A stretch of DNA of 64,000 nt from Candidatus Woesebacteria bacterium RIFCSPHIGHO2_01_FULL_44_10 (GTDB taxonomy: Bacteria > Patescibacteriota > Microgenomatia > UBA8517), in NCBI GenBank assembly GCA_001792465.1, contig MGGO01000031.1, forward strand, positions 1,172 to 65,171, written 5' to 3'. How positions within the stretch are numbered: the first letter of the stretch is position 1; each line of letters opens with the position of its first letter. Of the stretch, positions 14,910-37,413 are shown piece after piece. Position numbers and translations under genes: made by a program. The notes under the pieces were generated by a model. The model saw only the letters and a program-made list of their open reading frames with translations, did not search any database and had not been told where the DNA came from.

Positions 14910-14997
14910 TGCCAGACAGTTTTGTGATACAATTATCATTAACAAAACTTAAATAAGAAAGTTTTGATGGTTAAACAAGCCATTTTAAATACGAGCT

Positions 14998-15567
14998 ATG
15001 GCAACTCGAAACCACACTAAACTAATAGTGGATCTTCTGGAGCTATATGGAGAGGATCCAAACAGAGAGGGACTCAAAGAAACTCCCGAAAGAGTTCTTC
15101 GAATGTACAAGGAGCTTCTGGGTGGTTATCAACAAGACCCATCTTCGGTAATTAAGACTTTCGAAGGAAATGGACATAATGACTTGGTGACTGTTAGCGA
15201 CATCGATTTTTATAGTCTTTGCGAACATCACATGATACCCTTTTTTGGAAAAGTTCATATAGGTTATATTCCAAACGGCCGAATACTTGGACTTTCGAAA
15301 TTCGTTCGATTGACAGAAATTTACGCCAGGAGACTTCAGGTACAGGAGCGGCTAACCAGACAAATAATGGATGCAATCGAAACAAATTTGCACCCACAAG
15401 GAGCAATCGTTCATGTTGAGGCGGAGCATCTTTGTATGGTAATGCGTGGTGTCAAGAAGAAAGGGGCAATCACCAAAACTACAGCTCTTTGTGGAGATTT
15501 TGAAAAAGACCCTTTACTTGTGGATAGATTTTTTAGACATATAAATCGTAGTGATAATTCAAAATGA
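14998..15567 (+). CDS. folE: GTP cyclohydrolase I
   Basis: 189 aa. 'FYSLCEHHMIPFFGKVHIGYIP' and 'VEAEHLCMVMRGV' are FolE signatures. Confidence 0.85.
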   Translation: MATRNHTKLIVDLLELYGEDPNREGLKETPERVLRMYKELLGGYQQDPSSVIKTFEGNGHNDLVTVSDIDFYSLCEHHMIPFFGKVHIGYIPNGRILGLSKFVRLTEIYARRLQVQERLTRQIMDAIETNLHPQGAIVHVEAEHLCMVMRGVKKKGAITKTTALCGDFEKDPLLVDRFFRHINRSDNSK

Positions 15568-16019
15568 AGGTAACAAAACAAATTGAGTGGGATATGGGGC
15601 ACAGAGTAACTAACCATCACTCTAAATGTCAAAACATACATGGCCACCGCTATCGGGCCGAAATATGCATGGAGGGGAAATTAGTAGACATAGAAGGCAT
15701 ATCAGAAGAAGGGATGGTTATTGATTTTGGAGATATTAAAAAGATTGCCATGGAACATGTCCACGATGTTTTAGATCATGGATTTATGGTCTGGAGGAAA
15801 GATAAGGAGGTTATGAAATTTTTTGAGGATAACCCAAAGCAAAAGCACATAATTGTTGATTTTGTGCCAACTTCCGAAAACATTGCAGCCTGGATTTTTA
15901 AAGAGTTAGATGGACGATTTATCGATAAATTTAAAACAGATTTGAGGCTTTGCTGGGTCAAACTTTGGGAAACACCAACGAGTGTTGCGATCTGCACCAG
16001 AGAGGATTTAGAAAAATAA
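15564..16019 (+). CDS. queD: 6-carboxy-5,6,7,8-tetrahydropterin synthase (PTPS family)
   Basis: 151 aa with a 'CQNIHGHRY' Zn-binding motif. It has a 4-nt overlap with folE. Confidence 0.8.
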   Translation: MKVTKQIEWDMGHRVTNHHSKCQNIHGHRYRAEICMEGKLVDIEGISEEGMVIDFGDIKKIAMEHVHDVLDHGFMVWRKDKEVMKFFEDNPKQKHIIVDFVPTSENIAAWIFKELDGRFIDKFKTDLRLCWVKLWETPTSVAICTREDLEK

Positions 16020-16020
16020 A

Positions 16021-16809
16021 ATGAGTGGCGAGAGACAGATTTACCAACCCACACCGGAGGATCGGGAAAGAATCAGGCCAAAACCTGACCTTCTTAAAGT
16101 AAGCGGAGATGGAGTTTTTGCTACTTTGCAAGGTGAGGGAGTTACAGCAGGAGAGCCTTCAGTATTTTTGCGGTTGCACTATTGCAACTTGACTTGTGGT
16201 AAACCTGAAGGGTGGAAGTGCGACACTTGGTATACATGGGATAAGGAAAGGGAGGAGTATTGGACGGAGTCATCTGATGTGAGTTTTAGAGAAATAGCAG
16301 CGACTATGGAAGCTGCTTGGGAAAGCGCTTTTGATGCTAATGGGACAAAAAGGGCGGTTATTACCGGAGGTGAGCCTCTTCTGCAACAAAGTAAAATTAT
16401 TAAGCTAATAGAAGAATTACCAGATTGGGACATAGAAATTGAGACTAATGGCACGATCGTTCCCGCCCCTGAGCTCGGTGATTGTCAATTTAATTGCTCG
16501 CCAAAACTGGAGAACAGCGGAAACAGTAAAGCGCGTAGATATAACCCATCGGCGCTAAAAGCAATAAATGCACTACCCAACTCATGGTTTAAATTCGTAG
16601 TTTCAGACACAAGCGATCTTGATGAAATAGATGAACTCGTGCGAGATTGCGAGCTCAATGAAGATAAATTACTTATAATGCCGGAGGGTCAAACAGCAGA
16701 TGTTGTCGAAGGACATGCACAACTTGTGAGAGATGCTGTTAATGAACGAGGGTGGAAAATTACTATGAGAAATCAACTAATTTGGTATGGTGACAAAAGA
16801 AGAACTTAA
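16021..16809 (+). CDS. queE: 7-carboxy-7-deazaguanine synthase (radical SAM)
   Basis: Cys cluster 'CNLTCGKPEGWKC' and 'ITGGEPLL'. It sits in que gene context. Confidence 0.7.
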   Translation: MSGERQIYQPTPEDRERIRPKPDLLKVSGDGVFATLQGEGVTAGEPSVFLRLHYCNLTCGKPEGWKCDTWYTWDKEREEYWTESSDVSFREIAATMEAAWESAFDANGTKRAVITGGEPLLQQSKIIKLIEELPDWDIEIETNGTIVPAPELGDCQFNCSPKLENSGNSKARRYNPSALKAINALPNSWFKFVVSDTSDLDEIDELVRDCELNEDKLLIMPEGQTADVVEGHAQLVRDAVNERGWKITMRNQLIWYGDKRRT

Positions 16810-17949
16810 ATGATAATTGGATCAATAGACAATAAAGAAGTAGATAGTTCAAATTTAATACTTGATACAGTTGATAATTTTCAGCTTGATGAAGTTGTTA
16901 GCAATGCATTGTTGCTTACACTGGCCGGATACTTAGAAAAAGATGACATCACAGTAAACGGTAAACAATACTTTGATAAAAAGAGACTTGAACAATTCTT
17001 TAGTTACGTTCTTAACGATAAAAGGGCAGCGCCACGAAAGTATAACCTTCAATTAAGTTTTTCGAACAAAAACCACGAAGTAAATTCTGCAAAGAAAAAC
17101 AATTACAAATACATTATTTCATATAGTGGTGGTATAGACAGCACTGCAGGGCTTTTGTACGCACTAGACAAGGGATACCCCATACAACCAGTTTGGGTTG
17201 GTTTTGGGCAAAAAAATGAAAAAGATGAGTTAGAGGTAATAAATAAAATCTGCAAGAAACTTAAAACCAGACCTATTGTTATCAATATTAATCTAAAGAG
17301 ATATGTTGATGAAGGTTGGAACAGGTGGAAAATGGGGATTATTCCTGGAAGAAACTATATTTTTGCGTCTATTGCTGCTTCTATGGTAAACCTATCAAGT
17401 AGCGATAAAAACACAATATATATTTGCGCGCATAAAGAAGAAATCAATCCTGTTAATACGGATAAAAGTGAAAGGTTTTACAACACATGTACTAAGATCT
17501 TTACAAAAAGCTACAACAAAGATATCGAGCTTACTACTCCATTTTTTAATGCCACTAAACCGGAAATTATCTATTACTGGATCAAGCACTGGAAACAGAA
17601 ATATAACATTTCACCACAAGAAACTGTTAGTTGCTATCACGGTACCAACTGTGGAATTTGTAAAGCTTGTATAAATCGTGCAGTTGCTTTTGCGTGTTGT
17701 GGGCTACAAACAGAAAGTTATAAAAATGATCCCTTTAAGGATACCGAGCATGTGATTCAAGAAGGATATATTGATCGATTTAATATATTAAAATTAGAAC
17801 GAAAACTTGATTTTCTTTTTGCCCTTAACTTTAACAAAAATTCCCTGCCAACAAACTTGAGAAACTTCGTAGATACAAACTATAAAAGATACAGCAACAA
17901 AATAATCGACAGACAAAAAATGATTAGAGAGGGTTTAAACATAAAATGA
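16810..17949 (+). CDS. queC: 7-cyano-7-deazaguanine synthase-like PP-loop ATPase (QueC) with an N-terminal extension of about 100 aa
   Basis: PP-loop 'ISYSGGIDST'. The C-terminal Zn site is 'CYHGTNCGICKAC'. The N-terminal extension was not recognised. Confidence 0.7.
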   Translation: MIIGSIDNKEVDSSNLILDTVDNFQLDEVVSNALLLTLAGYLEKDDITVNGKQYFDKKRLEQFFSYVLNDKRAAPRKYNLQLSFSNKNHEVNSAKKNNYKYIISYSGGIDSTAGLLYALDKGYPIQPVWVGFGQKNEKDELEVINKICKKLKTRPIVININLKRYVDEGWNRWKMGIIPGRNYIFASIAASMVNLSSSDKNTIYICAHKEEINPVNTDKSERFYNTCTKIFTKSYNKDIELTTPFFNATKPEIIYYWIKHWKQKYNISPQETVSCYHGTNCGICKACINRAVAFACCGLQTESYKNDPFKDTEHVIQEGYIDRFNILKLERKLDFLFALNFNKNSLPTNLRNFVDTNYKRYSNKIIDRQKMIREGLNIK

Positions 17950-24619: not shown

Positions 24620-25027
24620 TCAGATTAAATCAAAAGCTTTCTTCTCGTCTTCGTGTTTCATTACTTCCTTAACTTTTTCGATCGGCATCCAATCATAACC
24701 GATACTTTCTTCATTTAGTTGAATCGATATATCTATGCGTTCAACTTTTAATGCTAAGAAATGGGCTTCAGTTAACCCATGTTTGCCCTCAAACTCAATT
24801 TTATAATTTAAGTTTTTGGTTTCTTTGAATTCGCTTGTCCCGAATTCTTCACCAGCCTCTCTTTTAGCTGCTTCCTCAAGGTTCTCATCTTTTTCAACGT
24901 CACCAAAAGTAATAGTCCATTCGTCCTCGTATTCGTCAAAAGGTTTATTGTGACGAAGTAAGAACCTTTTGTTTCCTTCTGGATCTATAGTCCATACTAT
25001 TACGGCTACTTTTTGATGTTTGCTCAT
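24620..25027 (-). CDS. NUDIX hydrolase (copy A of a duplicated module)
   Basis: Nudix box 'GDVEKDENLEEAAKREAGEEFG'. It is 135 aa and about 88% identical to the ORF at 42689..43096. Confidence 0.65.
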   Translation of the reverse strand: MSKHQKVAVIVWTIDPEGNKRFLLRHNKPFDEYEDEWTITFGDVEKDENLEEAAKREAGEEFGTSEFKETKNLNYKIEFEGKHGLTEAHFLALKVERIDISIQLNEESIGYDWMPIEKVKEVMKHEDEKKAFDLI

Positions 25028-25533
25028 ACTTTCAAGATTCTATTATAAAACTCATACTTTGCTCTTTGATAGTCCTTGTAATTTTTTCCATCAAAAGACA
25101 ATTTCAAATCTTCATACTCTTTTAATAATTTGTTGTTAGATCTTAGAATTTCATAGACTTTGATTTGCCTATCTGGAGGTTCTGTCAAATAAACTTCTAT
25201 CTCGTAACCGTCCTTATTAAATTTCCATTCAACGAAGGACTTTTTGACATATCTCCCTTGTTTATTAACTTCTCCAAAAAGCTTTTCAAAAGTTGGCAAA
25301 TACTTATCAAAGTCTTCCATGTTGGCAAGGGCATAAATATCAATGTCTTTTTGCCCTGATATTTCTAGAGCCACAGACCCCATGAACAGCACTTTAAGAT
25401 TAGAAAATGATTTTTTTATCTGTTTAACAATTGCTTCTCCTAATTTTTTGCCTTTTGAGTTAAATGGATGTATCGAGACTTTTCTATTAGGATCAATTTT
25501 TGATAAATAATCATTTTCTTCTTTGGTAAGCAT
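25024..25533 (-). CDS. GrpB-like nucleotidyltransferase-fold protein (copy A)
   Basis: 'LFMGSVALEISGQKDIDIYAL'. The annotated 234-aa ORF was trimmed to the internal Met (MLTKEEN) by comparison with its paralog at 43093..43590. Confidence 0.5.
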   Translation of the reverse strand: MLTKEENDYLSKIDPNRKVSIHPFNSKGKKLGEAIVKQIKKSFSNLKVLFMGSVALEISGQKDIDIYALANMEDFDKYLPTFEKLFGEVNKQGRYVKKSFVEWKFNKDGYEIEVYLTEPPDRQIKVYEILRSNNKLLKEYEDLKLSFDGKNYKDYQRAKYEFYNRILKV

Positions 25534-25569
25534 GTTTTGATTATATCGCACAACTGGTAAAATTGGATC

Positions 25570-25986
25570 ATGGCTAGAACTGGTACTCGCGCGGTTGCAA
25601 TAATTATCAAAGATAATAAAGTTGCCTTGATTCATCGTAAAAAAGAAGGAAGAGACTACTGGGTATTCCCTGGTGGTGGCGTAGAAAAAGGAGAAACCCC
25701 TGAAAAGGCAGTTATCAGAGAAGTGCAAGAGGAGTTGAGTTTGACAGGTAAGGTGGAAAGACTACTTTTTTCGGTAGAAAGTTACCCCAATGGCAATAAA
25801 GATCCATATTTTTTGTGCAGCGTTGGAAGCGAAGAAATTGAGTTGGGTGGACCAGAAAAGCAGCGACACTCAAAAGAGAATTGGTACGCCCCGCAGTGGG
25901 TTGAATTTGAAAAGGTTGGTAGCTTAAATTTATTACCCGAGACGGCTAAAGAACAATTTTTAGAAAAAGTTAGATCTGAGTTATAA
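25570..25986 (+). CDS. NUDIX hydrolase (MutT-like)
   Basis: 'GGGVEKGETPEKAVIREVQEELS' is a Nudix box. Confidence 0.65.
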   Translation: MARTGTRAVAIIIKDNKVALIHRKKEGRDYWVFPGGGVEKGETPEKAVIREVQEELSLTGKVERLLFSVESYPNGNKDPYFLCSVGSEEIELGGPEKQRHSKENWYAPQWVEFEKVGSLNLLPETAKEQFLEKVRSEL

Positions 25987-26044
25987 TCACATTTAGGTTG
26001 ATTTTGTAAAGTTATATCTCAAATTATAACTATACCAAACCACA

Positions 26045-26300
26045 TCAGGTATAGCAGCTGAGACAAATCCCTTTTTATACTGTCTCATTTGTCTCGTTTG
26101 GCCTCGTTTGTGATACACTTGAAGGAAGCAGCTATGGGATCGAAAGGTTCCAGACCGACATGCTCAGCCAAACAGGGCACCCCAGCGACCGAGATGCCTC
26201 GAGAAGCCCAACCTTTCCTTCTAAACCGCTAGTTTTTCTTCCAAACATTCGGACGGTACGCTCGTAATTCGGATATTAGCCTTGAAATAAGTCTCTGGTT
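26045..26300. repeat. Intergenic repeat family, copy 1, containing a GAGACAAAT/ATTTGTCTC hairpin and a degenerate tRNA-Gln-3'-like segment
   Basis: Shares 'GAGACA..CCCTTTTTATA.TGTCTCA..TGTCTC', 'GTGATACACTTG' and 'GGTTCCAGACC..GCTCAGCC' with the copies at 40362-40615 and 44842-45000. Its distal part, 'GGGCACCCCAGCGACCGAGATGCCT', matches 3266-3292 just downstream of tRNA-Gln. Confidence 0.5.
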
Positions 26301-26374
26301 AAGTGGACAGGTACCCCTTAAAATGCAAGAAGTTTCTATATAATTAGAAGCTTATTTTAAGGAGGTGATTTATT

Positions 26375-26632
26375 TTGAAACCTGTTATTGCCAAAGAAGT
26401 CAAAGAGGAAATATTGGCTAAAGTTAAGGCCGGTGAACCAGCCGCTTCAGTTGCCCAGAAATTCGGAATCTCGGTCAAAACGATATATGGCTGGTTAAGA
26501 TGGAATACCATTAAAGGAGTAAGTTGGCTAGATTATGCCAAGTTAAAGAGAGAAAATCAGCAACTAAAAGAGATTATTGGGGTATTGTCCCTTGAGGTTG
26601 CAAAGTCAAAAAAAAAGACAGGTAGGGCGTGA
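26375..26632 (+). CDS. IS3 transposase OrfA (HTH)
   Basis: 'VAQKFGISVKTIYGWLR' is the HTH. The leucine-zipper-like 'LKRENQQLKEIIGVL' follows. Confidence 0.7.
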   Translation: MKPVIAKEVKEEILAKVKAGEPAASVAQKFGISVKTIYGWLRWNTIKGVSWLDYAKLKRENQQLKEIIGVLSLEVAKSKKKTGRA

Positions 26633-27449
26633 GCTTGAAGCTAAACTGCCTGGAATCTCCAAACCCCTTATCTCCCGAACTCTTGGGATTGGAGAAAGAA
26701 ATCTTTACAACCAAAATACTAGACAAAAAGAGGCTGATCTGGCCCTAAAAGACCAGATACTCAAGGTTTTGGAACTAAACCCAAGTTATGGTCACAGAAG
26801 AGTCGCTTTAGCCTTGGGGATTGGCAAGAAAAGGACAAGAAGAGTTATGAGGCTGTTTGGTATCAAGCCTTACAAAAGAAAAGCTAGATGGACCAAAAAG
26901 AAGGATTATGGCAATCCACCCTCAGGAATTCCGAACCTTATCAAAGGTTCCTGCCCAGTTAAACCCAATGTTTATTTTGCCGGAGATTTTACAAGGCTAA
27001 TTTGGAATCAAAAGATTATCCATCTGGCCACTTTTATTGATTTATTTACCCGGGAAATTGTGGGCTGGTCAGTTTCCATTAGGCACACATCAGAATTTGT
27101 AATTGAAGCATTTTTAGATGCAGTGAGGAATGCGGGTTTACCTCTAATTGTCCATACCGATCAGGGAAGCGAATACAACTCAAAAGAATACACAAAGTTT
27201 ATGGAAAGCCTGGGAGTTAAGGTAAGTATGTCTGCTAAAGCCAGCCCTTGGGAAAATGGCTACCAAGAATCTTTCTATGACAACTTTAAAACTGATCTAG
27301 GAGCAGAATTTGAAAGGTTTGAGACCATCGGAGAGTTTGTCGAGGCTCTCCATTCAACAATTAACTATTACAACAACCGAAGGATTCACACCAAACTTAA
27401 AACATCTCCTCTCAAATTCAAGCTAGAATTTCTATCCCGTAATATGTAG
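26577..27449 (+). CDS. IS3 transposase OrfB (DDE/rve integrase core). It is expressed as an OrfAB fusion via a -1 frameshift.
   Basis: 'HTDQGSEYNS' marks the DDE region. The C-terminal 'YNNRRIHTKL' matches the conserved IS3 end. Confidence 0.7.
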   Translation: MGYCPLRLQSQKKRQVGRELEAKLPGISKPLISRTLGIGERNLYNQNTRQKEADLALKDQILKVLELNPSYGHRRVALALGIGKKRTRRVMRLFGIKPYKRKARWTKKKDYGNPPSGIPNLIKGSCPVKPNVYFAGDFTRLIWNQKIIHLATFIDLFTREIVGWSVSIRHTSEFVIEAFLDAVRNAGLPLIVHTDQGSEYNSKEYTKFMESLGVKVSMSAKASPWENGYQESFYDNFKTDLGAEFERFETIGEFVEALHSTINYYNNRRIHTKLKTSPLKFKLEFLSRNM

Positions 27450-27473
27450 AAAGTTTTTGCAAAAAAGGGGTAC

Positions 27474-27914
27474 TTGACACACGCGAGTTATCGGGAAAGA
27501 TATAAAGAGTTTTTGAAAATTGACTTTCCTCATATTCCGTATCCAAAAGATAAAAATAGCTTTAAGAAATTGGTTGCATTAGGTACAGAATTACGCTTGC
27601 TACATTTGCTTGAATCTCCGAAAGTAAACCAATTTATAACAACTTATCCTGTTGCTGGATCCAATGTAGTTGAAAAACCAAACTACAAAGATGGCAAAGT
27701 ATTTATTAATGAAAGCCAATATTTCGGAAGTGTTCCAGAAGTTGCATGGAACTTCTGGATTGGCGGTTACCAGCCAGCTCAAAAATGGCTTAAAGACAGA
27801 AAAGACAGAACTCTTACCAATGAAGACATTGAACATTATCAGAAGATGATTGTGGCGTTGGTGGAGACAGAAAGAATTATGAAAGAGATAGACAAAATTC
27901 CAAATGGTTTATAA
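27474..27914 (+). pseudogene. C-terminal fragment of a Type IIG/Type ISP/BREX-PglX-like DNA methyltransferase-restriction protein, truncated by the IS3 insertion
   Basis: 'YFGSVPEVAWNFWIGGYQPAQKWLKDRKDRTLTNEDIEHYQKMIVALVETERIMKEID' is the conserved C-terminal module of MmeI/PglX-like enzymes. The ORF begins inside the IS right end. Confidence 0.5.
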
Positions 27915-27962
27915 GCTGTATGACCTCGCACCGGAAGAAATTGCGATTATGGAGGGTAAAGA

Positions 27963-28970
27963 TTAGTTTCTCTCGGTATATTTATGGTTGTCGCTGAACC
28001 TTTTACAATCTCGACTTGCCTCATCTTTTTTAACCCCTACTTGCATCAGAGGATGAACTAACATCTTTTCTGCGAATTTCCCAAGCTTGACCCCCTGCGT
28101 TTTCGACACTGACTTTGCAAAGCTTATTTTCCCTTGTATTTTGCAGTAGTCATTGGAGGGAATGTATCCTTTCAATGACGCTGTTTCTAAAATTAAATTT
28201 CGTATCTGCTGGATGTGCCCCCTGCCAATTGAAAGCTTTCTGTTAACTGGTATACCTGTGACTTTTTGACTATAGTTTGAAGTTATCACTTTCACCTTTC
28301 GTTTTCTGACTGCATAGCCGTGCTTGACTAGTATTTTGATGATAGGTTCTATTGAGTCGGTAATACTCTTTTTACTGCCTGAAACGGTGATGTCATCAAT
28401 AAAAATGGTAATGTCTAGACCCGCGCTGTCGGCTACGGCTTTTATCTCTCCAAATACGGGTGCGAGTGCAAAGTTGCAAAGCAAAGGACTTGTTGGTGCA
28501 CCCTGGGGCAGTCTGTGTTGAAATGTAGTTAACTTGGTGAGTAGGTTTGCAGTCTTGTACCCGCAGCCAAAATGGTCAATCCACACTTGGTTTATCTGAT
28601 GATAATTCGTGCTGGGAAAACAGTTTTTTATATCGATGACCCCTATACATTCCTTTCCTATATGAATTTTCGCATTTTCGACAATTGACCTACCAGATAT
28701 TCCTCCCGTCATACCATCAGGCAGTCGGCGAATATTTCGATTGAGAATATTTTTAAGTATCCGTTTTTGGAGCGTCTTCAATGGGTGTTGGGGGTTATCT
28801 ATATGCCGCCACTTGTCTGTACCTTTTTTGTGGATATCAAAAGGTTGATAGTAACTACCAGCAGAGGTTGCGATTTTTTGCAACCTATCTCTTTTCGTGC
28901 CCAACAAGTATTCAAGGTATGAAAGCGAAACCAGTGGACGCAATTCTGGGGATTGTTTTTTTGTGCTCAC
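27963..28970 (-). CDS. Retron-type reverse transcriptase
   Basis: 'DIKNCFPS', 'LPQGAPTSPLLCNFAL', 'FIDDITVSG' (an F/YxDD variant) and 'KVTGIPV' (the retron VTG motif). It is collinear with RT-Ec86 over domains 2-7. The size is 335 aa. Confidence 0.7.
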   Translation of the reverse strand: MSTKKQSPELRPLVSLSYLEYLLGTKRDRLQKIATSAGSYYQPFDIHKKGTDKWRHIDNPQHPLKTLQKRILKNILNRNIRRLPDGMTGGISGRSIVENAKIHIGKECIGVIDIKNCFPSTNYHQINQVWIDHFGCGYKTANLLTKLTTFQHRLPQGAPTSPLLCNFALAPVFGEIKAVADSAGLDITIFIDDITVSGSKKSITDSIEPIIKILVKHGYAVRKRKVKVITSNYSQKVTGIPVNRKLSIGRGHIQQIRNLILETASLKGYIPSNDYCKIQGKISFAKSVSKTQGVKLGKFAEKMLVHPLMQVGVKKDEASRDCKRFSDNHKYTERN

Positions 28971-29254
28971 TATTTGTTCTCTAATAAAACATTGAGCAGA
29001 TTTTCGCCTATTTTATCTACACTTTTCTTATCCGAATTTTTAAGAACTTTTTTTTCAGAGGAGAGGAGGACCAGAAGATAAAATGGAACATCCAGCTTTT
29101 TGGCAATTTTTTCCAATACATCAATGCTGGGTGTCCTATCACCTTTCTCTATCCTTGACAAATAGCTATTATCCACGTTGAGAGCCTTAGCAAGGTCTTT
29201 TTGTGTTACACCTTTGGCAGCTCTAATGGTTTTTATTGCTTTTCCGTATTTCAT
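28970..29254 (-). CDS. XRE-family helix-turn-helix protein
   Basis: 'IRAAKGVTQKDLAKALNVDNSYLSRIEKG'. Its stop overlaps the RT start in an ATGA arrangement. Confidence 0.7.
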   Translation of the reverse strand: MKYGKAIKTIRAAKGVTQKDLAKALNVDNSYLSRIEKGDRTPSIDVLEKIAKKLDVPFYLLVLLSSEKKVLKNSDKKSVDKIGENLLNVLLENK

Positions 29255-29316
29255 ATCATCCTTACATAAAAATCTGAGTTTCCTCCGGTTTTTATATAAG
29301 AAATTAAGGATGAAGT

Positions 29317-29511
29317 TTATCGCACTTTCTCCAAAAGTTTCTTACAAATTTTATTAACCGATTCTTTAGCCTTGCGGTGATTTCTCACGCTCAGCGAGTG
29401 GTTAAAATCCTTCAGAGCTTTTTTCAAAAATCGCTCATCTTCTGATCCCAGCACTCCTGACTTAACAAGACTGTTGATAGAATCAACAATTTGTTGAAAT
29501 CGTTTAGCCAT
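29317..29511 (-). CDS. Small basic helical protein (64 aa) of unknown function
   Basis: The ORF has a strong RBS (AAGGAGGTG) 7 nt upstream. It is the first gene of the HTH-RT operon. Confidence 0.4.
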   Translation of the reverse strand: MAKRFQQIVDSINSLVKSGVLGSEDERFLKKALKDFNHSLSVRNHRKAKESVNKICKKLLEKVR

Positions 29512-29519
29512 AATATTTT

Positions 29520-29920
29520 CACCTCCTTAATCTGTAGCTGGCTCCTCTTTAGAAAGAGGACTACGAGTGCCACTCGTCCTCTTTATGAAAGTGTTGGGAT
29601 CTCCTTAATTCTTAAGGTGCCGTTAAGTTAAAGTATCAGCAGGATAGACGCGTGCAACGAAACATTGCATATCACGTTGTCCATTCATGCTCAAATACTC
29701 GCCCCGGCCAAAAAGCAGAGCAAATTATTACTCTGCGACCTTCCTTTCGGAAAATCATCAGTAGCTCGTTTGAGCTGAGCCAGTCGAAACTGACTTGTTA
29801 GGTACGATATGGCGTAAGGTGAAAAATTAATGTGCTAAGGCGGCATCCGCCGTCAGAAAGAATATAACAGCTCGTGTTCACTTTGTCAAATAGTTGTACT
29901 GATAGACAATTTTAGCCTGA
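29520..29920 (-). ncRNA. Candidate structured non-coding RNA (possible retron msr/msd-like region) upstream of the small-ORF/HTH/RT operon
   Basis: About 400 nt without a long ORF. Hairpins are present at 29538-29572 (tcctcttt..aaagaggac-acgag..ctcgt-cctcttt), 29706-29727 (gcagag..ctctgc), 29753-29768 and 29828-29843 (ggcgg..ccgcc). Confidence 0.3.
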
Positions 29921-29921
29921 C

Positions 29922-30716
29922 GTGTTATCATCCAATTACTTCCCTATGACCAATCAAATGGCAGAAAAAATGAATAAATACGGACAAAGAGGAGAGAAGT
30001 ACCGATACATGCCTGGTTCAAAGAAGCCGTTTAGTTTGAGCCGCAGCAAAATTGATCTCTTTTTAGAGTGTCCGCGCTGTTTTTATCTTGACAGAAGGGT
30101 TGGTCTGGGTAGGCCAGGCATGCCAGGCTGGCCTTTGAATAGTGCTGTGGATGAGCTTTTGAAAAAAGAGTTTGATCTGCTTCGAAAAAATGGCGAGGCA
30201 CACGCTATTATGGAAAAGTACAAAATTGACGCTGTTCCCTTTCAACACCCGGATATTGATACCTGGCGAGCAAACTTTACCGGCAGGCGTTTTCTTCACA
30301 AGCCCACCAACCTAGAAGTCTTTGGAGCCGTCGATGATATTTGGGTTAACAGAAAAGGAGAGCTCATTATTGTTGATTACAAAGCAACCTCTACCAGTAA
30401 AGAGATTTCCCTTGACGATGAGTATAAGGAAGGCTACAAAAAACAAATTGAAATTTACCAGTGGATTTACAGGCAAAACGGACACAAGGTGAGTGACACT
30501 GGCTACATAGTATATGCCAATGGGATAAAAGACCGGGACAAGTTTGATGGAATCTTGGAGTTTGAGATGAGCCTTCACCCGCACAAAGGTGATGATTCTT
30601 GGGTTGAGCCAACTATTTACGAAATGAAAAAGTGTCTAGATTCAGACAAAATTCCCGATCCCAATCCAAATTGTGAATTTTGCAAATATCGGGAATTAAT
30701 CAGAAAAGAAGAATGA
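29922..30716 (+). CDS. PD-(D/E)xK nuclease of the Cas4/RecB family with a four-Cys cluster
   Basis: 'VDDIWV...LIIVDYKAT' gives the D..D/EYK core. Cysteines occur at 'CPRCFY' (N-terminal) and 'CEFCKY' (C-terminal). Confidence 0.6.
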   Translation: MLSSNYFPMTNQMAEKMNKYGQRGEKYRYMPGSKKPFSLSRSKIDLFLECPRCFYLDRRVGLGRPGMPGWPLNSAVDELLKKEFDLLRKNGEAHAIMEKYKIDAVPFQHPDIDTWRANFTGRRFLHKPTNLEVFGAVDDIWVNRKGELIIVDYKATSTSKEISLDDEYKEGYKKQIEIYQWIYRQNGHKVSDTGYIVYANGIKDRDKFDGILEFEMSLHPHKGDDSWVEPTIYEMKKCLDSDKIPDPNPNCEFCKYRELIRKEE

Positions 30717-30767
30717 TGAAACAAAATGAGTTAAAATATTTGTTATGTCGGAAATAGACAAGAATAA

Positions 30768-31301
30768 ATGAAAATAAATAAAAACCCTGAAGATAATTAC
30801 AAAATTGAAGAGGCAATTAAATTTTTAGTCCTTTCAGTAGAAAAAACTGGGACAAATCCAAAACCAGTTATAACCCACTCTATTAGGGTTGCTTTTCGAT
30901 TGGATTTCTATGGTTATGGCATGGATGTTATTTTGGCAGCACTCCTTCATGATTTACTTGAGGATACTGTGACTTCTTTAGAAGAAATCGAAGATAAATT
31001 TGGGAAGACGGTTTCGGAGTTGGTATCGGCCAGCACTTTTAACAAAGAAATTGAGGATAAGGAAGAGAGATACAAAACAAGCTTTGATAAAGCTTTGCAA
31101 TCCGGTAGGAATGCTCTGGTAATACGAGCCGCCGACTTACTTGATAATAGTTTCTATTACTCTTTGGTTGACGATCAAAAAGTTTATAATCATTTGCTCG
31201 GAAAGTTATCCTACTTTCTAAAAACAGCCAAAAATAAAATAGGTAAGGAAAAAATATATAAGGATTTGGATGGTAGATTGAAGATACTTAAGAAAAAATG
31301 A
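30768..31301 (+). CDS. HD-domain phosphohydrolase ((p)ppGpp-hydrolase-like)
   Basis: 'HSIRVA' and 'AALLHDLLEDT' are HD motifs. Confidence 0.5.
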   Translation: MKINKNPEDNYKIEEAIKFLVLSVEKTGTNPKPVITHSIRVAFRLDFYGYGMDVILAALLHDLLEDTVTSLEEIEDKFGKTVSELVSASTFNKEIEDKEERYKTSFDKALQSGRNALVIRAADLLDNSFYYSLVDDQKVYNHLLGKLSYFLKTAKNKIGKEKIYKDLDGRLKILKKK

Positions 31302-32521
31302 AAATTCTTTACACAAATAACATAAAATTCCCGGGGGATAGTCCTTTTGAAGTAGTAGAAAGGAAAGGAATTGGTCATCCAGATACAGTCGCAGATGCGG
31401 TTGCCGAAAGAATTTCTGTGGATTATTCAAAATATTGCATTGAACACTTTGGTGCAATTTTACACCACAATGTTGATAAATTTGCCGCCCTTGGAGGTCT
31501 TGTAAATGTTGATTGGGGTAAGGCAGAAATGACCAAGCCTGTGCGGGCTTTGGTAAATGGGCGCATAAGTGGATCCTTCAATAAAAACACAATTCCTCTC
31601 AAAGAAATCTATAAAAAGGCTATTAAAGATCAGCTTGCGATTGCGCTACCTTCTCTGAACACAGACAAATCATTAGAAATAATTGATCACTTTACAACTT
31701 ATTCGAAAAACCCGCGTTGGTTTAATCCCTTGAGTTTAGATGATCTTCCTGACCACTCAAATTTGTTTGCCAACGACACTTCCGCGGTCGTGAGTTATTG
31801 GCCATTGACAAAAAGTGAGCAACTTGTATTGAAACTGGAAGGATATTTCTATGATAAAAATCAAAAACCCAAATTCAAAAACTTCGGTCAAGATATAAAG
31901 GTTATGGTTGTGAGAAGAGAGAATAAATTTGATATTACTCTCTGTGTTCCCTTTTTCTCAAAATATCTCGATGGTCCGGATTCATATTGGACTAAGTTAC
32001 ATGAACTCGAGTCTAAACTTACGAAGTATGCAAGAAGTCTTTTGGATATTGCAGCCACAATTGATCTTAAAGTAAATCCTCATGATCAAAGAAAAAAGGG
32101 CAGCATTGATGCCAAATCCTTTTACTTCGTAGCAGCCGGAGGAGCTTTGGACTATGGTGAAGAAGGAGTCGTGGGTCGCGGGAATAATCGCTTAGGCATA
32201 ATTCCATCGTTCAGACCATATACCATGGAGGCAGCTTGTGGCAAAAATCCCGTTTATCATGTGGGAAAAGTATTGGGGCTTGTGTCAGATGTACTAGCAA
32301 AGGAAATAGCAAAGAAATGCAAATGCAACGTAGAAGTTTGGATTATTACCAGGAATGCAGATCCCCTGTTTGAGCCTAATAATATAATAATAAATACATC
32401 TGAAAAGGTAGATAAACAGAAAATTGAGGGGGTTGTAAAGTCGATTCTTTCCCAAAGAGATTGGACAGATAAAATAATTCGTGAGGGAGTCATTATCCCT
32501 AAAACCGGAAACATGTATTAA
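31298..32521 (+). CDS. Archaeal-type S-adenosylmethionine synthetase
   Basis: '[19 protein letters not shown]'. The length of 407 aa is typical of archaeal/CPR MAT. Confidence 0.7.
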
Positions 32522-32563
32522 ATCCTCCACAGAATTTGATAATCACGCTCAATCGATGTATTA

Positions 32564-33445
32564 TTGCCCTATAATATGGTAATTACAGCACTAATAGGCT
32601 TGCCTGTCGAACACAGTGTCTCTCCAACGCTATTCTCCATTTATGCCAAATCCTCAGGACTTGAATACTCACACTTAAAAATAGACGTTCGAGCTAAAAA
32701 CTTGAAGAATGCTCTTGAAGCTTCTAAAACGTTGAATTTTAGTGGTCTGAACGTAACTCTGCCTTACAAAATGGACGTAATCAGATATCTGGATCATGTT
32801 GATAAGGAAGCTCTGAAAATAGGTGCCGTTAACACAATCGTAAATAAAAAAGGGAAATTGTATGGATTCAACACAGACTCCTATGGTGCTATAGAATCGA
32901 TAAAAGATCACAGTAAAATTGTTTCGAGGGAAGCGGTTGTTTTGGGTACTGGGGGTGCCGCTAGGGCCTTAGTAGCAGGTTTACTGGCTGGTGGTTGTAC
33001 AAGAGTTGTTGTTGCTTACAGAAGGCCAAAGTCCATCAGAACAAAAGGAATTATGAAGGACTTTAAAGGAAAAGTTGAATTTATCACTTATCACGATAAA
33101 AATCTTATTGAGAAACTGGCTGAGGCTAACATAGTCTGTAATGCTACCAGCTGTGGAATGGCTCCTAAGTCTACTGAGTCACCAATACCTTATGAAACCT
33201 TAAAAGAGGTTTCTCTTAAGGGAGATTTTGCAAAAAAATTGTTTTTCGACGCAATATTTAACCCTTATGAAACTCAGTTTTTGAAAAATGCCAAGAAGCT
33301 GGGGGCAGACATACAAGGAGGTACTGAGATGATGATTTATCAAGGAGTGAGGGCATTTGAACTCTGGACAGGGAAGAAAGTTAGCAGAAAATCTGTAGCG
33401 GAAGCTAAAAAAATGCTAAGAAAACATCTTTTGAAAGTCAAATGA
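32564..33445 (+). CDS. aroE: Shikimate/quinate dehydrogenase (AroE family)
   Basis: 'LIGLPVEHSVSP' and 'VLGTGGAARA'. Confidence 0.7.
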   Translation: MPYNMVITALIGLPVEHSVSPTLFSIYAKSSGLEYSHLKIDVRAKNLKNALEASKTLNFSGLNVTLPYKMDVIRYLDHVDKEALKIGAVNTIVNKKGKLYGFNTDSYGAIESIKDHSKIVSREAVVLGTGGAARALVAGLLAGGCTRVVVAYRRPKSIRTKGIMKDFKGKVEFITYHDKNLIEKLAEANIVCNATSCGMAPKSTESPIPYETLKEVSLKGDFAKKLFFDAIFNPYETQFLKNAKKLGADIQGGTEMMIYQGVRAFELWTGKKVSRKSVAEAKKMLRKHLLKVK

Positions 33446-35274
33446 AAAATAAGATTAACATCTCTATAAATCTTGATGAAATTTCTGATGATTTTGATAA
33501 AGCGGTGAAATTTCTAGTCAAGAATAAAGTCAAATTTGTGGAGATAAGGACAATAAATCGAAAGAACATTGTTGACTTCGATATTGAAGATGTAAAAAAA
33601 GTTGCAGCTGGCCTTTCTAAAAATGACCTGAAAGTCTCTGCGATTGCTTCCCCTCTTTTTAAGTGGTATCTAAACCAAACCGGAGAAAAAATTTTGCACG
33701 ATAATTTTTCATTTAACCCCGCTCTTAACGAAAACCAAAAACGAGAGTATATTTTGAAAACAATCAAAATCGCTAAGATCTTTGGTACGAAAAATGTCCG
33801 AGTATTTTCAAATCTCAAACAGGATGGATTAAAGTCAAAAGATTTATTTAGAGATGTGATGTTTAAATATATGCTTCAGGAATTCTCTAAGGCGAGGATC
33901 GTTCCCCTTTTGGAAAACGAACCAGTATGCTTAATTTCCAAAGCAGATGACTATCTAGTCACATTACAAAAATACGGGAAACAAGGACTTAAAGCATGGT
34001 GGGATATTGCCAACTCATATGACGTGGGCGATCTTGTCGACGGAAATCTCATTAAAAACCTAGCGATTTTTGTAGAATATCTCCATGTTAAAGACAAGGT
34101 ATCAAGAATTGAGAAAACATATGTTCCACTAGGAAAAGGATATATCAACTATAAAAGAATATTTTCAGATCTACTACCTGTTATCGAAAAGGATATCTTT
34201 TCCAGCATTGAAACCCATGTTCATTCAGACAAAGTTCAGGCAACGAAAACATCTTTAGATCATCTAAATGGTCTCTTAAACCAAAAAAGAGCTGCATACG
34301 CCATTGTTGGTGCCGGAAGGATTTCGAAGAAACACTCTCTGGCCATCAAAGAGAATATAAATTCAGAACTAAGGGGAGTATTTGATATAGATCGTAAAAA
34401 AGCGGAATCTTTTGCATCGGAAAGCGATGTTAAAAATTATCAGAATTTAAACGATCTTCTTTCAGACCAAAAAGTTGAAGTAGTTGATATCTGCACCCCT
34501 CATCATACACATATAAAAATTGCACAGAAAGTTATTGCCGTCAATAAGATCGTTCTTTCGGAAAAACCATTTTCTATTAACTCTAAAGGATTGGAGGAAT
34601 ACCTAAAGGACAACAAATCTGCCGGAAATACGTATGTCGTATTTCAAAATTTATTTAATAAACCAGTACAGCAATTTATTGACAATTTTAGAAAAGGTAA
34701 ATTTGGGAAAATACAATTTTTTGCTGCGAATATCAGGTGGAGTCGAGACGATGATTACTTTAAAGATTGGCATGGAAAAATCCGATTTTCAGGGGGATCA
34801 CTTTTCAATCAAGCAATTCATTCAATACAACTCTTACTCCTCTTGTTGGGAAACCAGACAAAAAATGTTTCCTATCAAAAAAGAACAGTTAGAAAAGGTT
34901 CTGAAGTGGAAGATATCGGAAATGCAGTTATTAATTTGAAAAACGGGGCTTTCGGATATCTGGAATTATGCTTGGTTAATAAAGGAGAAAATTTAGAATC
35001 CTCATTTTATTTATCTGGTACAAAAGGTTCAATGAAGATAGACGGTAAAGCTCTTAATAGCCTTGTTTATGAGTATTTTGATAGTGAAAAAAACAAACGT
35101 GTTTATGGAGGCAAGAGCATAAGCGATATTTATGGCAACGGCCACAAAATTCTTATCAAAACCCTGAGTGACAAAATTCTGGGCAAAAAAGATGTAAACC
35201 AGAAATATTTGATTAAAGCAAAGGATGTTCTGCCCGTTATTAGATTCATAGAAAAATTATATGGAAACTCTTAA
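33442..35274 (+). CDS. Fusion protein: N-terminal xylose-isomerase-like TIM barrel (sugar-phosphate isomerase/epimerase) and C-terminal Gfo/Idh/MocA oxidoreductase
   Basis: 'AYAIVGAGRISKKH' is the Rossmann N-terminus of the second half. The first half resembles a TIM barrel. 610 aa in total. Confidence 0.4.
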   Translation: MKNKINISINLDEISDDFDKAVKFLVKNKVKFVEIRTINRKNIVDFDIEDVKKVAAGLSKNDLKVSAIASPLFKWYLNQTGEKILHDNFSFNPALNENQKREYILKTIKIAKIFGTKNVRVFSNLKQDGLKSKDLFRDVMFKYMLQEFSKARIVPLLENEPVCLISKADDYLVTLQKYGKQGLKAWWDIANSYDVGDLVDGNLIKNLAIFVEYLHVKDKVSRIEKTYVPLGKGYINYKRIFSDLLPVIEKDIFSSIETHVHSDKVQATKTSLDHLNGLLNQKRAAYAIVGAGRISKKHSLAIKENINSELRGVFDIDRKKAESFASESDVKNYQNLNDLLSDQKVEVVDICTPHHTHIKIAQKVIAVNKIVLSEKPFSINSKGLEEYLKDNKSAGNTYVVFQNLFNKPVQQFIDNFRKGKFGKIQFFAANIRWSRDDDYFKDWHGKIRFSGGSLFNQAIHSIQLLLLLLGNQTKNVSYQKRTVRKGSEVEDIGNAVINLKNGAFGYLELCLVNKGENLESSFYLSGTKGSMKIDGKALNSLVYEYFDSEKNKRVYGGKSISDIYGNGHKILIKTLSDKILGKKDVNQKYLIKAKDVLPVIRFIEKLYGNS

Positions 35275-36289
35275 TAGGGCAGGTATAACTGAAAAACTAT
35301 CGGCTAGTTACTATTTAGGTAGCGGTGTTACGGGTTTGGTGCCTTTTGAAGTAATTGCCACCAAATCTTTGGATGAAGGATCAAAATTACCTTCTTCATT
35401 CGAAGTGGTAAGAGATAGTCATTCATCATCTCTATTTTTAGCAAGTAGTGAGACTCATAAAAAACCGGGTGATGATAGCGTGTTATTTATTCTCAAAGAC
35501 GATTCGGGACAGTCTCAAATCGAAGTTGTCTCTCCAGATTTATTTATAATAAACGGCCCCATAGATTCTGAGGGCTTTCAAGACCGTCTGCCGTACCTAT
35601 TTTATAATCTTGCCGAGAGGGCTAGGCAGGAAAAATTTGAATTGCTGACAGCACACGCTGCAGCAGTGTCCAAAGACGGAAGAGGAATACTAATACTTGG
35701 CGATAAAGGTTCAGGTAAAACTTCAATTATGTTGGCTCTGTGTTTAACTCAAGGCTACGAAATGGTTGGGAACGACTCTGTAATTTTAGGAACTCAAAGA
35801 GAATTATCAGTAATGGCAGGTAGTCGGCAAATTAATGTAAGGCTCCCTGTTGCAAAAAAACTTTCCCTACCGCTAAATGAAGAACTAAGAAAAGAGGATC
35901 AAATCGATTACGAAATAAAATCATCGTTTTTGCCTGAGGACTTAGGAATTAAAGCCAACGAATCGAGTAATCCAATATCTATGGTTGTGAGAATAAATCT
36001 ACACTCTGATAATCCCGACTTTGTTGCAACAAATATTCCATCACTTGAGATTGAGGCATTAAGACTGAGTGAAAATTTCTCCAGGTATATTCGTGGAATA
36101 CCTACTCCCTTAGAACTTTCCAGTACGGGAATACGCGGATATTTTCCTGATTTAGATTCTCCAGAATTGACCGAAACCAGAAATAACGTGGTTAATGCTC
36201 TATTGACACAGACAACCTATCTATATGTTGCAGGCAACGATCCAACACACACGGCCCAACAACTTGATGCCATAATTAAGAAATTATGA
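35261..36289 (+). CDS. P-loop protein with an HPr-kinase C-domain-like motif
   Basis: 'GRGILILGDKGSGKTSIMLAL'. Confidence 0.35.
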   Translation: METLNRAGITEKLSASYYLGSGVTGLVPFEVIATKSLDEGSKLPSSFEVVRDSHSSSLFLASSETHKKPGDDSVLFILKDDSGQSQIEVVSPDLFIINGPIDSEGFQDRLPYLFYNLAERARQEKFELLTAHAAAVSKDGRGILILGDKGSGKTSIMLALCLTQGYEMVGNDSVILGTQRELSVMAGSRQINVRLPVAKKLSLPLNEELRKEDQIDYEIKSSFLPEDLGIKANESSNPISMVVRINLHSDNPDFVATNIPSLEIEALRLSENFSRYIRGIPTPLELSSTGIRGYFPDLDSPELTETRNNVVNALLTQTTYLYVAGNDPTHTAQQLDAIIKKL

Positions 36290-37413
36290 AAATTATTGTA
36301 ATAATTCCTACTCTGAATGAAGCAGACAGTATTGCGTTTGTAACAAAAACGATTGATAAGGGTCTGAGAAAAATTTCAGGAAACCCCAGGGCACTAATCG
36401 TTAATTCTGATGGTGGCAGTACCGATAAGACTTCTGATGTTTTTCTTAAAACAGGCACTTTTTTCCCAAAAAAAGTAATCTCTTACAACGGTAAAAGAGT
36501 CGGCAAGGGAAGAAACGTTTTTGAGGTGCTAAAATTGTTTCATAACTCAGCTGATTACTTCTTAATGATCGATGGAGACATTACTTCTATTGAAACAGGT
36601 TGGGTAAGTAAACTTCTAAATCCTCTCTTGAACAAAAATGCTGATCTGGTTGTCCCTATCTACAAACGAAATAGATATGAAGGAAATACAACAAATCATT
36701 TCTCTTCACCATTAATTTACGCTTATTTTGGTAAAAACATTTCACAACCAATCGCTGGAGATTTTGCCTTTACAAAGAAGTTGGCAAAAAAGATCTATGC
36801 GTCTTTTTCTTCTGATTCGGATTATGGATACGGAGTGGATACGTTGATTACTTGGACTGCACTTTTAAGCCAATTCAAGATAAAACAAATTAGACTCGGC
36901 AGGAAAATTCATAAGCCCAGTTTTCCCAAGATAGTCCCGATGTTTGGACAGGTGTGTTTTTCAACCATTAATCTTCTTAGTGAGAATAGAGAGAGCATTA
37001 AAAAAAGATTGAGTATCAAGAGAAAGCAATTATCTAATATGTTAGAAGTAATCGACGATACTTATATCAAAGTACCAACTACAAAAAAGGTAGTCGAAAT
37101 TGAAAATATTGTTCATAAGTTATTAAAAAAACAAAGAATTTCGGAAGAAATCCCGGGAAGTAAAACCACAAGTTGCCTTAATATGGATATTTGGACAGAT
37201 ATTTTATGTAAGCATATAAATATTGTTCTAAAAAAGAAACTCAAAAAGAAAGAAAAGGATGAATTTATAGAATCAATCACTGCATATTATTTACTGAGAG
37301 TGCTGGGCTACTTTAAGGAAATAGAAAAGCTGTCGGCAAAAGAAATCGATCGGCTTTTAATCGCGCAAAAACAAATGCTTCAAGAGAAAGTTGGCAAGAT
37401 GCTGTCTGATTAG
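36286..37413 (+). CDS. GT-A fold glycosyltransferase (glucosyl/mannosyl-3-phosphoglycerate synthase-like)
   Basis: 'KIIVIIPTLNEADSI' and 'MIDGD' (DxD). Confidence 0.5.
   Translation: MKIIVIIPTLNEADSIAFVTKTIDKGLRKISGNPRALIVNSDGGSTDKTSDVFLKTGTFFPKKVISYNGKRVGKGRNVFEVLKLFHNSADYFLMIDGDITSIETGWVSKLLNPLLNKNADLVVPIYKRNRYEGNTTNHFSSPLIYAYFGKNISQPIAGDFAFTKKLAKKIYASFSSDSDYGYGVDTLITWTALLSQFKIKQIRLGRKIHKPSFPKIVPMFGQVCFSTINLLSENRESIKKRLSIKRKQLSNMLEVIDDTYIKVPTTKKVVEIENIVHKLLKKQRISEEIPGSKTTSCLNMDIWTDILCKHINIVLKKKLKKKEKDEFIESITAYYLLRVLGYFKEIEKLSAKEIDRLLIAQKQMLQEKVGKMLSD

Follow-up and report, generated by a model that had tools for sequence, protein, structure and literature searches.

Genomic islands and prophages are reportedly found in tandem at tRNA or transfer-messenger RNA (tmRNA) genes. 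In SCCmec, a staphylococcal cassette chromosome (SCC) element, the large serine recombinases CcrAB/CcrC insert at the 3' end of rlmH, and phiRv1 of Mycobacterium tuberculosis is a large-serine-recombinase element whose attB lies inside the multi-copy repeat REP13E12. To our knowledge, bacteria of the Candidate Phyla Radiation (CPR; Patescibacteria) have small genomes in which few mobile elements have been recognised, and genetic tools for them are almost lacking. Do comparable elements exist there? Here we analyse a stretch of 64,000 nucleotides (the window) from Candidatus Woesebacteria bacterium RIFCSPHIGHO2_01_FULL_44_10 (contig MGGO01000031.1 of assembly GCA_001792465.1), which carries three copies of an intergenic repeat made of a conserved box (L), a variable stretch (M) and a block laid out like the 3' end of a tRNA (T). 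On balance, we lean towards reading the copies of this L-M-T module as the right-end junctions of three tandemly inserted elements, which a large serine recombinase probably inserted beside a tRNA-Gln gene. The copies are neither pseudo-tRNA genes nor miniature inverted-repeat or palindrome-associated transposable elements (MITEs/PATEs) and, judged by sequence, they belong to a CPR-wide family of intergenic modules.

How does this locus compare with the described systems? By analogy, the L-M-T architecture appears to work like tRNA-linked tandem islands and SCC composite islands. As in the former, an integrase gene stands beside an intact tRNA gene, a tRNA-3'-like sequence recurs in the same orientation at the distal junctions, the composition is distinct, accessory and defence genes are carried, and the presumably older units are progressively decayed. 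Unlike them, this locus has a large serine recombinase where they have a tyrosine integrase, a diverged mimic (16-17 of 28 positions) where they have an exact copy of the tRNA end, and at each junction a near-invariant L box of ~40 bp that is common across phyla. With SCC elements it shares the large serine recombinase, the single chromosomal site and the composite tandem arrays with short direct repeats, in which some units are without a recombinase; what differs is the tRNA-3'-like target, the ~28-nt repeats with tRNA geometry, the L box and the CPR hosts. The resemblance to phiRv1 and REP13E12 lies in a recombinase target within a multi-copy repeat, but REP13E12 measures ~1.4 kb and is found in one genus, whereas L-M-T measures ~0.1-0.2 kb, is superphylum-wide and has a tRNA-like core. 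If our reading is true, the use of a tRNA-mimic site with a serine recombinase and the conserved L box would go beyond the textbook tRNA-linked islands. A short cis-element, its insertion point and a recombinase family would then give a handle on gene gain and loss in the CPR, L-M-T would be a marker for genomic islands in metagenome-assembled genomes (MAGs), and landing site, recombinase and promoter would be candidate engineering parts for these bacteria.

Three repeat copies downstream of a tRNA-Gln gene

Direct reading and alignment show three repeat units in the window, all on the + strand and co-oriented with tRNA-Gln:

26005-26170, + strand: copy 1 of the L-M-T module; TATCAA-type box at ~26029-26049, L box 26060-26099, GTGATACACTTG at 26110-26121, T block 26143-26170, ending in GACATGCTCAGCCA
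40345-40507, + strand: copy 2; TATCAA box 40368-40388, L box 40399-40438, T block 40480-40507
44826-45013, + strand: copy 3; TATCAA box 44850-44870, L box 44880-44920, a 24-nt insertion, GTGATACACTTG at 44953-44964, T block 44986-45013
45001-45033, + strand: terminator-like hairpin and T-run using the 3' half of the T block of copy 3, the only copy in the window that has one

From left to right, the units have in common a TATCAAA..ATATCA-type box, GAGACA, the string CC[C/T]TTTTTATA[C/G]TGTCT.A..TGTCTC, ATTTAGCCT, a variable stretch, GG(G)T.C.AGACC, five bases and GCTCAGC. Their relatedness, first proposed in an earlier note on this DNA, holds: the window has exactly three occurrences of the 27-nt core CCYTTTTTATANTGTCTNANNTGTCTC, 100 shuffles have none at up to three mismatches, and profile hidden Markov models of the L box and the T block match only these three sites within the window. 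In the alignment, pairwise identities are 64-71% overall and 80-88% in the L box; their T blocks agree with each other at 15-24 of 28 positions. Some details of the note need correction. The palindrome that it gave to all copies is a 9-bp one in copy 1 (GAGACAAAT/ATTTGTCTC), whereas copies 2 and 3 have the 6-bp GAGACA/TGTCTC. The block GTGATACACTTG, also described as shared, lies in the variable stretch and is exact in copies 1 and 3, but copy 2 has GTGAGACAATTA there. The copies are located where the note had put them, but the units begin ~40 nt further left. The segment likened to the 3' half of tRNA-Gln does have a tRNA-like layout, but at 16-17 of 28 positions identical to the last 28 nt of tRNA-Gln the T blocks are diverged mimics and no exact copies.

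Related modules were collected with an L-pattern scan (an exact pattern, one genome per species), which gave at least 120 loci, here labelled by an L and a number; counts for the family are counts among the matches listed. All 83 T matches lie on the strand of L (83:0); 17 of them are without a box of their own (T-only sites) and mostly stand downstream of an L, and in the 10 loci with several L boxes all of these are co-oriented. What do these data say about a tRNA-derived, non-autonomous MITE or PATE, which the note had put forward as one origin of the repeat and which a TnpA of the IS200/IS605 type would mobilise? Such an element would account for a hairpin-forming palindrome, for multiple intergenic copies and for the open reading frame (ORF) beside copy 2 (40620-41042, - strand). 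This ORF had been taken for a decayed IS200-like TnpA gene; it is indeed the neighbour of copy 2, but its Y1_Tnp match, which spans the C-terminal half of the profile, is weak (E = 3.6e-4, below the Pfam cutoff). The single orientation is hard to reconcile with such mobility, as are the low identity of the copies with their large indels, the one palindrome per unit with no second terminal hairpin or terminal inverted repeat, and the clustering of the copies in one island instead of dispersal; nor is Y1_Tnp among the recurrent neighbour families. We disfavour this origin and give it almost no credence.

At the left end of the arrangement stands the only tRNA that ARAGORN and Rfam recognise in the window, and next to it a recombinase gene and a spacer that recurs behind copy 1:

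3187-3262, + strand: tRNA-Gln(CUG), an intact cloverleaf with encoded CCA (ARAGORN; Rfam tRNA model, 60.7 bits), 3' end CCCCGCAGCCA
3263-3389, + strand: spacer F1, between tRNA-Gln and the recombinase gene, homologous to 26171-26288, starting with AGACGGGCACCCCAGTGACC
3503-4816, - strand: large serine recombinase gene (Pfam Resolvase, Recombinase, Zn_ribbon_recom), its 3' end toward the tRNA
26171-26288, + strand: spacer F2, the F1 homologue directly after copy 1, starting with AACAGGGCACCCCAGCGACC
40508-40560, + strand: spacer after copy 2, of a different type (ATTCGACTCGCTACGCTCGCT...)

The recombinase gene, encoded on the other strand, follows tRNA-Gln at a distance of 240 nt. That copy 1 continues into sequence like the flank of tRNA-Gln had been noticed before, and the match proves longer than first stated: F2 is 81% identical to F1 over the first 35 nt and 67% over ~128 columns. 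A 50-mer across the tRNA 3' end and its flank agrees with copy 1 at 35 of 50 positions, the maximum of 200 shuffles being 31. F1 may be the recombinase-proximal arm of one element, E1, and F2 what is left of this arm in an older one, E2. Copy 2 is followed by a spacer that also stands behind the T block in L006; because ATTCGACTCGCTACGCTCGCT recurs there, it too would be a recurring element-side arm. F-like spacers follow the T block in L048 and a tRNA-Gln(UUG) on the IMG/VR contig L132, where a recombinase 66% identical to that of the window lies ~110 nt from the tRNA with the spacer between them. A further likeness, of a separate kind, is found at 28545-28584 on the opposite strand of a retron reverse transcriptase ORF, where 40 nt resemble the tRNA-Gln 3' end and the start of F1 (28/40, core 25/33; above all 200 shuffles, with maxima of 26 and 23); the Pfam reverse transcriptase domain runs across it uninterrupted.

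The T block, neighbouring recombinase genes and the low-GC island

T is 28 nt long and consists of a T-loop-like T[T/A]C[C/T]AGA (variants TTCCAGA, TTCTAGA and TACTAGA), 5 nt, a 7-nt 'acceptor' strand, G and CCA. The spacing of loop, 12 nt and discriminator is kept in 81 of 86 T sites, the discriminator is G in 72 and CCA continues in 50; the T-loop of T has a pyrimidine where tRNAs have a purine. By their last bases, T blocks fall into subtypes such as ..CAGCCA, ..CCGCCA and ..CCCGCCA. Does this block behave as a boundary in DNA? In three related genome pairs (L019/L091, L081/L089 and L055/L058) homology runs for 0.8-3.4 kb through L-M-T and ends at the last bases of T (..GCTCAGCCA, ..GCTCCGC and ..GCTCCGCC, respectively), after which both sequences continue. 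Arrays in L056, L106 and L052 open with an L-M-T head, and behind it a T-only site recurs every 0.5-2.5 kb, always directly after a stop codon; the cassettes between them hold one to three co-oriented ORFs, mostly without a Pfam match. In L087 a 3-kb unit of a recombinase and one further gene lies between two T blocks.

The association with large serine recombinases is recurrent and oriented. Homologues occur in 12 of the ~120 loci, always on the strand opposite to L-M-T, and those adjoining the module are 46-62% identical to the gene of the window. The recombinase comes directly after T in L011, L019, L053, L087 and L094, and upstream of L in six others (at 87-230 nt in L021 and L005, further away in L040, L064, L109 and L118). 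Of the Pfam families that recur in the 202 nearest neighbours, Resolvase/Recombinase alone has a clear link to recombination. In L019 (~+52 to +75 after the L motif) and in L053 the last codons of the recombinase lie on the complement of the T block, and in L019, where the protein ends in WLSMSV, the stop codon falls inside the T-loop motif. As a consequence of this overlap, recombination at T could alter the C-terminus of the enzyme.

Copies and recombinase of the window lie in a region of low GC, 0.33-0.40 across ~4-46 kb against ~0.40-0.47 outside (0.42-0.47 at 1-4 kb and mostly so past 46 kb). The low-GC block begins at tRNA-Gln and ends ~1 kb beyond copy 3; as in a tRNA-linked island, a recombinase adjoins an intact tRNA and the composition is distinct. 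The copies divide the block into three segments:

3263-26170: segment E1 (low GC), with genes, named from Pfam, for recombinase, terminase-like, small-terminase-like, ParB-methylase, helicase-nuclease, DUF2130 and FolE/QueD/QueE-like/QueC proteins, and a NUDIX-GrpB-NUDIX right end
26171-40507: segment E2 (low GC), with IS3, a restriction-gene fragment, a type VI retron reverse transcriptase with its HTH partner, Cas4-like nuclease, HD, S-adenosylmethionine (SAM) synthetase, sugar and glycosyltransferase genes and GNAT
40508-45013: segment E3, with the Y1_Tnp-like remnant, a methyltransferase, a NUDIX-GrpB-NTPase/NUDIX set and DUF3850
24620-25986: NUDIX (-), GrpB (-) and NUDIX (+) genes directly left of copy 1, paralogous to 42689-44569, left of copy 3
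26304-27479, + strand: IS3-family element (orfA/orfB; Pfam HTH_Tnp_1, rve) with terminal inverted repeats of ~33 nt (TGGACAGGTACCCCTT.. and ..AAGGGGTACTTGACA)
27474-27914: remnant of a Type ISP/IIG gene, the C-terminal fragment alone (Type_ISP_C)

The right ends of E1 and E3 are paralogous over stretches of 1.2-2.3 kb (repeat family D1); at the amino acid level the NUDIX pair is 85% and the GrpB pair 64% identical, while the third pair, of NUDIX type on the other strand, shows a short NUDIX-domain match only (17/47, E = 3e-9). The segments would have been inserted in the order E3, E2, E1. E1 would be the newest and still complete insertion, E2 an older one with no recombinase left, and E3, a 4.5-kb remnant, the oldest and most decayed. 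Why would a recombinase gene be missing after F2? The homology of F2 ends at the IS3 element, which sits between F2 and the truncated Type ISP/IIG restriction-methylase gene, and its insertion directly after F2 would explain the absence.

Which mechanism would produce this arrangement? We propose that the circular form of the element would read cargo, L, M, T, F and recombinase on the reverse strand, T meeting F where the circle closes, and that T acts as a DNA recombination junction. The large serine recombinase, which may act on T, would recombine the element site with either the tRNA-Gln 3' end or a T block already in place, with the crossover at or directly after the position equivalent to CCA. 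Since the acceptor stem of tRNA-Gln is intact and the T blocks are not complementary to it, such a crossover seems likelier than one in the T-loop. After integration, the left junction would be tRNA (or T) followed by F and the recombinase, and the right junction would be cargo, L, M and T followed by the old flank. Because T is kept at the right junction and the tRNA stays intact, further elements could land and co-oriented tandem arrays would result; elsewhere, the model would yield both of the arrangements observed, T followed by recombinase and recombinase followed by L. Among the options of the earlier note, 'relics of integration sites' fits these data: co-oriented copies in a low-GC block that starts at a tRNA with a recombinase beside it, F recurring after copy 1, and T serving elsewhere as homology breakpoint and cassette boundary.

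The cassette arrays raise another question: is the module the head of an integron-like system, with L-M-T providing promoter and primary site, T-only sites ending the cassettes, and the serine recombinase in place of IntI? Integrons have attI, a Pc promoter and attC cassettes, and some of the loci resemble them in their promoter-like head and co-oriented short cassettes that end in a conserved site; in L056, L106, L052 and L087 one head precedes cassettes that are mostly of a single gene and mostly ORFans. The recombinase is divergent from and adjacent to L in L021, L005 and L064, as intI is to attI, and the nearest downstream gene is co-oriented with L in 71 of 101 cases. The window itself fits poorly. 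It has no T-only sites, each copy has its own L box, and the segments are large (4.5-23 kb) with genes on both strands. In most loci the recombinase is not nearby; no IntI was seen, Phage_integrase is not one of the 25 commonest families listed for the 202 nearest neighbours, and T is without the folded palindromic structure of attC. Ordinary tandem integration fits the same data, and we consider the integron-like reading quite unlikely. There is also a wider claim, speculative and on the unlikely side: L-M-T and the T-only sites might together serve gene capture throughout the CPR, doing with serine recombinases what integrons do and shaping the variable gene pool of these reduced genomes. 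In such a system the tRNA-mimic would be the universal recombination site and L, read by a radiation-wide factor, would control downstream arrivals.

The module as a possible RNA gene or regulatory region

Could T be part of an RNA? ARAGORN reports no tRNA at the copies, nor at the module in 60 other loci. Rfam 15 at the gathering threshold, run on the window and 18 loci, returns tRNAs only, and on copy 1 at E <= 10 it gives no tRNA-model match and one meaningless mir-84 match. There is no consistent partner for T that would form a 5' acceptor strand, in folds or in the alignment, so the proposal of a pseudo-tRNA-Gln falls: tRNA models recognise no cloverleaf. An odd tRNA, a split tRNA half and a permuted tmRNA piece were also considered, and ARAGORN found none of them at the module in the window and the 60 loci; the 'tRNA-???' called in L035 is a separate gene directly downstream of the module. 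RNAalifold on 18 members gives -3.9 kcal/mol with essentially no covariation, and single-sequence folds range from z = +2.6 to -3.7 across members, the window copies (+1.0, -0.4 and -1.7) folding no better than shuffles. The T stem has at most 2-5 bp. By eye, the 3' strand of T pairs with G-rich stretches of M in some members, in registers that shift and so do not count as covariation. Terminators follow T at 6 of 79 sites versus 4 control windows, which is no enrichment. Taken together, these results leave the small RNA family that had been suggested without support. The tRNA-like domain of tmRNA and YrlA resemble T in a T-loop-like motif, acceptor-strand spacing and a G-CCA end; unlike them, L-M-T has no 5' acceptor strand, D-arm analogue, covariation, or match in Rfam or ARAGORN.

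There is nevertheless a version of the RNA idea that includes integration. L-M-T could be a small-RNA gene with a tRNA-like 3' end, L being its promoter and M-T the RNA, which is used as an integration target; incoming elements would bring a replacement 3' end, hence the duplicated T, as at tRNA and tmRNA genes. The exact tRNA 3' geometry, with G73-CCA in 50 of 86 T sites, suits such a gene, and long identity of the T sites in arrays is expected if an element must restore the 3' end of the gene. Likewise in its favour, G-T wobbles in the short T stem fit the + strand (TTGGG/CCTAG in L011 and L122), TATA[C/G]T is a -10-like element upstream with GAGACA at 16-17 nt in 20 loci, and a terminator stands directly after T in copy 3 and L096. 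In L019/L091 a recombinase element is inserted after an L-M-T common to both genomes, and in L035 the module lies directly upstream of tRNA genes. The failed structural searches just described argue the other way, as do the flat terminator count, a length of M from ~5 to >150 nt and the lack of conserved synteny; a recombinase start 87-230 nt upstream of L, as in three loci, suits an element-borne module better than a target gene. We regard this reading as unlikely, though worth keeping in view.

What, then, is L? The box of ~40 bp is almost invariant and comprises GAGACA, a T-run, TATA[C/G]T and two direct TGTCTCAT repeats (TGTCTC type). L may be an outward (rightward) promoter overlapped by operator-type repeats, which is the weakest link in the model. 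TATA[C/G]T makes a good -10-like element, and copies 2 and 3 reach 9 of 12 sigma-70 matches when it is used as the -10. The spacing from GAGACA to TATA is bimodal: GAGACA lies 16-17 nt upstream (class 14-17 nt) in 20 loci and 7-10 nt upstream in 43, the window copies belonging to the latter. In ~20 loci the second TTGTCT could act as -35 for TAnAAT-like motifs in M. An archaeal reading with a B recognition element (BRE) and TATA was set aside, as most carrier genomes are labelled bacterial. The number of repeats in L can expand, with four TGTCTCATT in tandem in L052 (2678-2715). CAYGOB010000001 (L084 and L107, Saccharibacteria) has six L boxes and three T blocks, co-oriented, within 15 kb.

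Might L-M-T be a regulatory region and nothing else, with divergent promoters and operators of phage-like elements? T would then be an RNA-level signal, a 5' untranslated region or a processing site, and the copies would reflect related elements or gene duplications. The TGTCTC/GAGACA repeats occur in both orientations and resemble operator half-sites, in copies 2 and 3 the repeat extends as far as the leftward gene's start codon, the module of L122 separates divergent operons in an element with terminase and methylase genes, and a ParB-methylase cluster stands upstream of L on the opposite strand in six other loci. A purely regulatory T does not account for homology breaking exactly at its end in three genome pairs, for T-only sites that bound cassettes or for recombinase genes that abut it, and the neighbouring genes are extremely diverse. 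This makes the regulatory-only reading very unlikely, and a regulatory role of the TGTCTC repeats is in any case compatible with integration.

Several observations weigh against insertion by the recombinase at T. Known large serine integrases cross over at 2 bp, and their attP and attB are otherwise dissimilar, so that ~28 shared nucleotides are neither needed nor created; the ~28 nt common to T sites within arrays are atypical of phage serine integrases and closer to SCC-type sites. It is this long shared stretch, unusual for phage-type enzymes, that keeps the RNA-gene and integron-like alternatives alive. The T blocks of the window differ mutually and from tRNA-Gln to an extent that makes them no fresh duplications. 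Only ~10% of loci show a recombinase within 8 kb, E2 and E3 have no recombinase gene, and the metabolic genes of E2 (SAM synthetase, shikimate dehydrogenase) could be host genes. An exact-protein look-up of the gene left of the tRNA found no empty site or circular junction; 12 contigs carry this left-flank protein, and the recombinase is in place wherever the listed sequence extends past the tRNA. For L, the count of sigma-70 consensus matches is no higher than in shuffles, and conservation almost base for base across phyla has no explanation in a recombination role. A metagenome scan with the junction pattern CAGCCAANNNNGGGCACCCCAG returned 18 unrelated high-GC matches, none with tRNA, L, T or recombinase.

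The family beyond the window and further features

The module is intergenic and measures ~80-220 bp. Among the matches listed, 81 carriers have CPR/Patescibacteria names in their record titles and span many lineages, including Paceibacterota, Woesebacteria, Shapirobacteria, Levyibacteriota, Gottesmanbacteria, Saccharibacteria, Peregrinibacteria/Peribacteria, WWE3, Dojkabacteria, Gracilibacteria, Doudnabacteria and others. A further 21 are third-party MAGs with record labels of Gammaproteobacteria or Pseudomonadales, and their modules are near-identical to CPR ones; L033, L046 and L088 are probable chance matches to the L pattern. A T-loop motif follows within 260 nt in 89 of 126 L occurrences (~70%), the distance from L to T running from ~5 nt (L045, L107, L119) to >150 nt. 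The 202 nearest neighbours are highly diverse, from aminoacyl-tRNA synthetases to Abi proteins. The L pattern was found in only two IMG/VR contigs, blastn of copy 1 against phage records gave no match, and in the searchable literature we found no description of the L box or the L-M-T module.

Individual loci add some observations. Recurring in 17 of them is a ~700-aa protein that combines several CxxC zinc-ribbon motifs with a P-loop kinase-like domain at its C-terminus; its gene ends 30-70 nt before L in L081 (503-2599), L089 and L090 and elsewhere lies mostly a few kb upstream, and Pfam gives no informative match beyond AAA_18/AAA_33. In L122 (IMGVR_UViG_3300020195_001307) the ORF pattern and the L motif recur every 9117 bp over 14.5 kb, which suggests that a 9.1-kb element is tandemly repeated or concatemeric. 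The unit has one L-M-T together with large and small terminase-like genes, two methylases, NUDIX and ribonucleotide reductase; within the 14.5 kb no recombinase was seen. In L008 (Peregrinibacteria) the core GGGTACTAGACCC occurs at 228-240, ~100 nt after a tRNA-Gln(CUG) and without an L box, and a second time 1.6 kb on (1829-1841), now as part of an L-M-T module. The arrangement resembles a small insertion with a boundary at either side, next to the tRNA species that is also found in the window.

By its predicted genes, the content of the island is of the kind typical of mobile, defence and accessory regions. The E1 genes at 6731-17949 encode a ParB-fused DNA methylase, DUF2130, GTP cyclohydrolase I, QueD, a radical-SAM enzyme and QueC, a set that suggests 7-deazaguanine modification of DNA. 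The helicase-nuclease of E1 has 1077 aa, with PDC-S37, MkoC and Hhe as best PADLOC matches and a weak DpdJ match. E2 carries a type VI retron pair at 27963-29254 (- strand), its reverse transcriptase matching PADLOC RT_VI at E = 6e-72 and its Cro/C1-type HTH partner matching HTH_VI at E = 5e-27. The SAM synthetase of E2 (31298-32521), beside shikimate dehydrogenase and sugar-modifying genes, belongs to PF01941 (AdoMet_Synthase), which we take to be the archaeal-type SAM synthetase family.

Outside the island, the window holds a complete diversity-generating retroelement at 60938-63802, whose repeats differ at template adenines in 18 of 18 differences:

60938-61061: template repeat
61092-61484, - strand: bAvd-like gene
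61399-62583, + strand: reverse transcriptase gene
62487-62610: variable repeat, in the 3' end of the target gene (441 aa, - strand)

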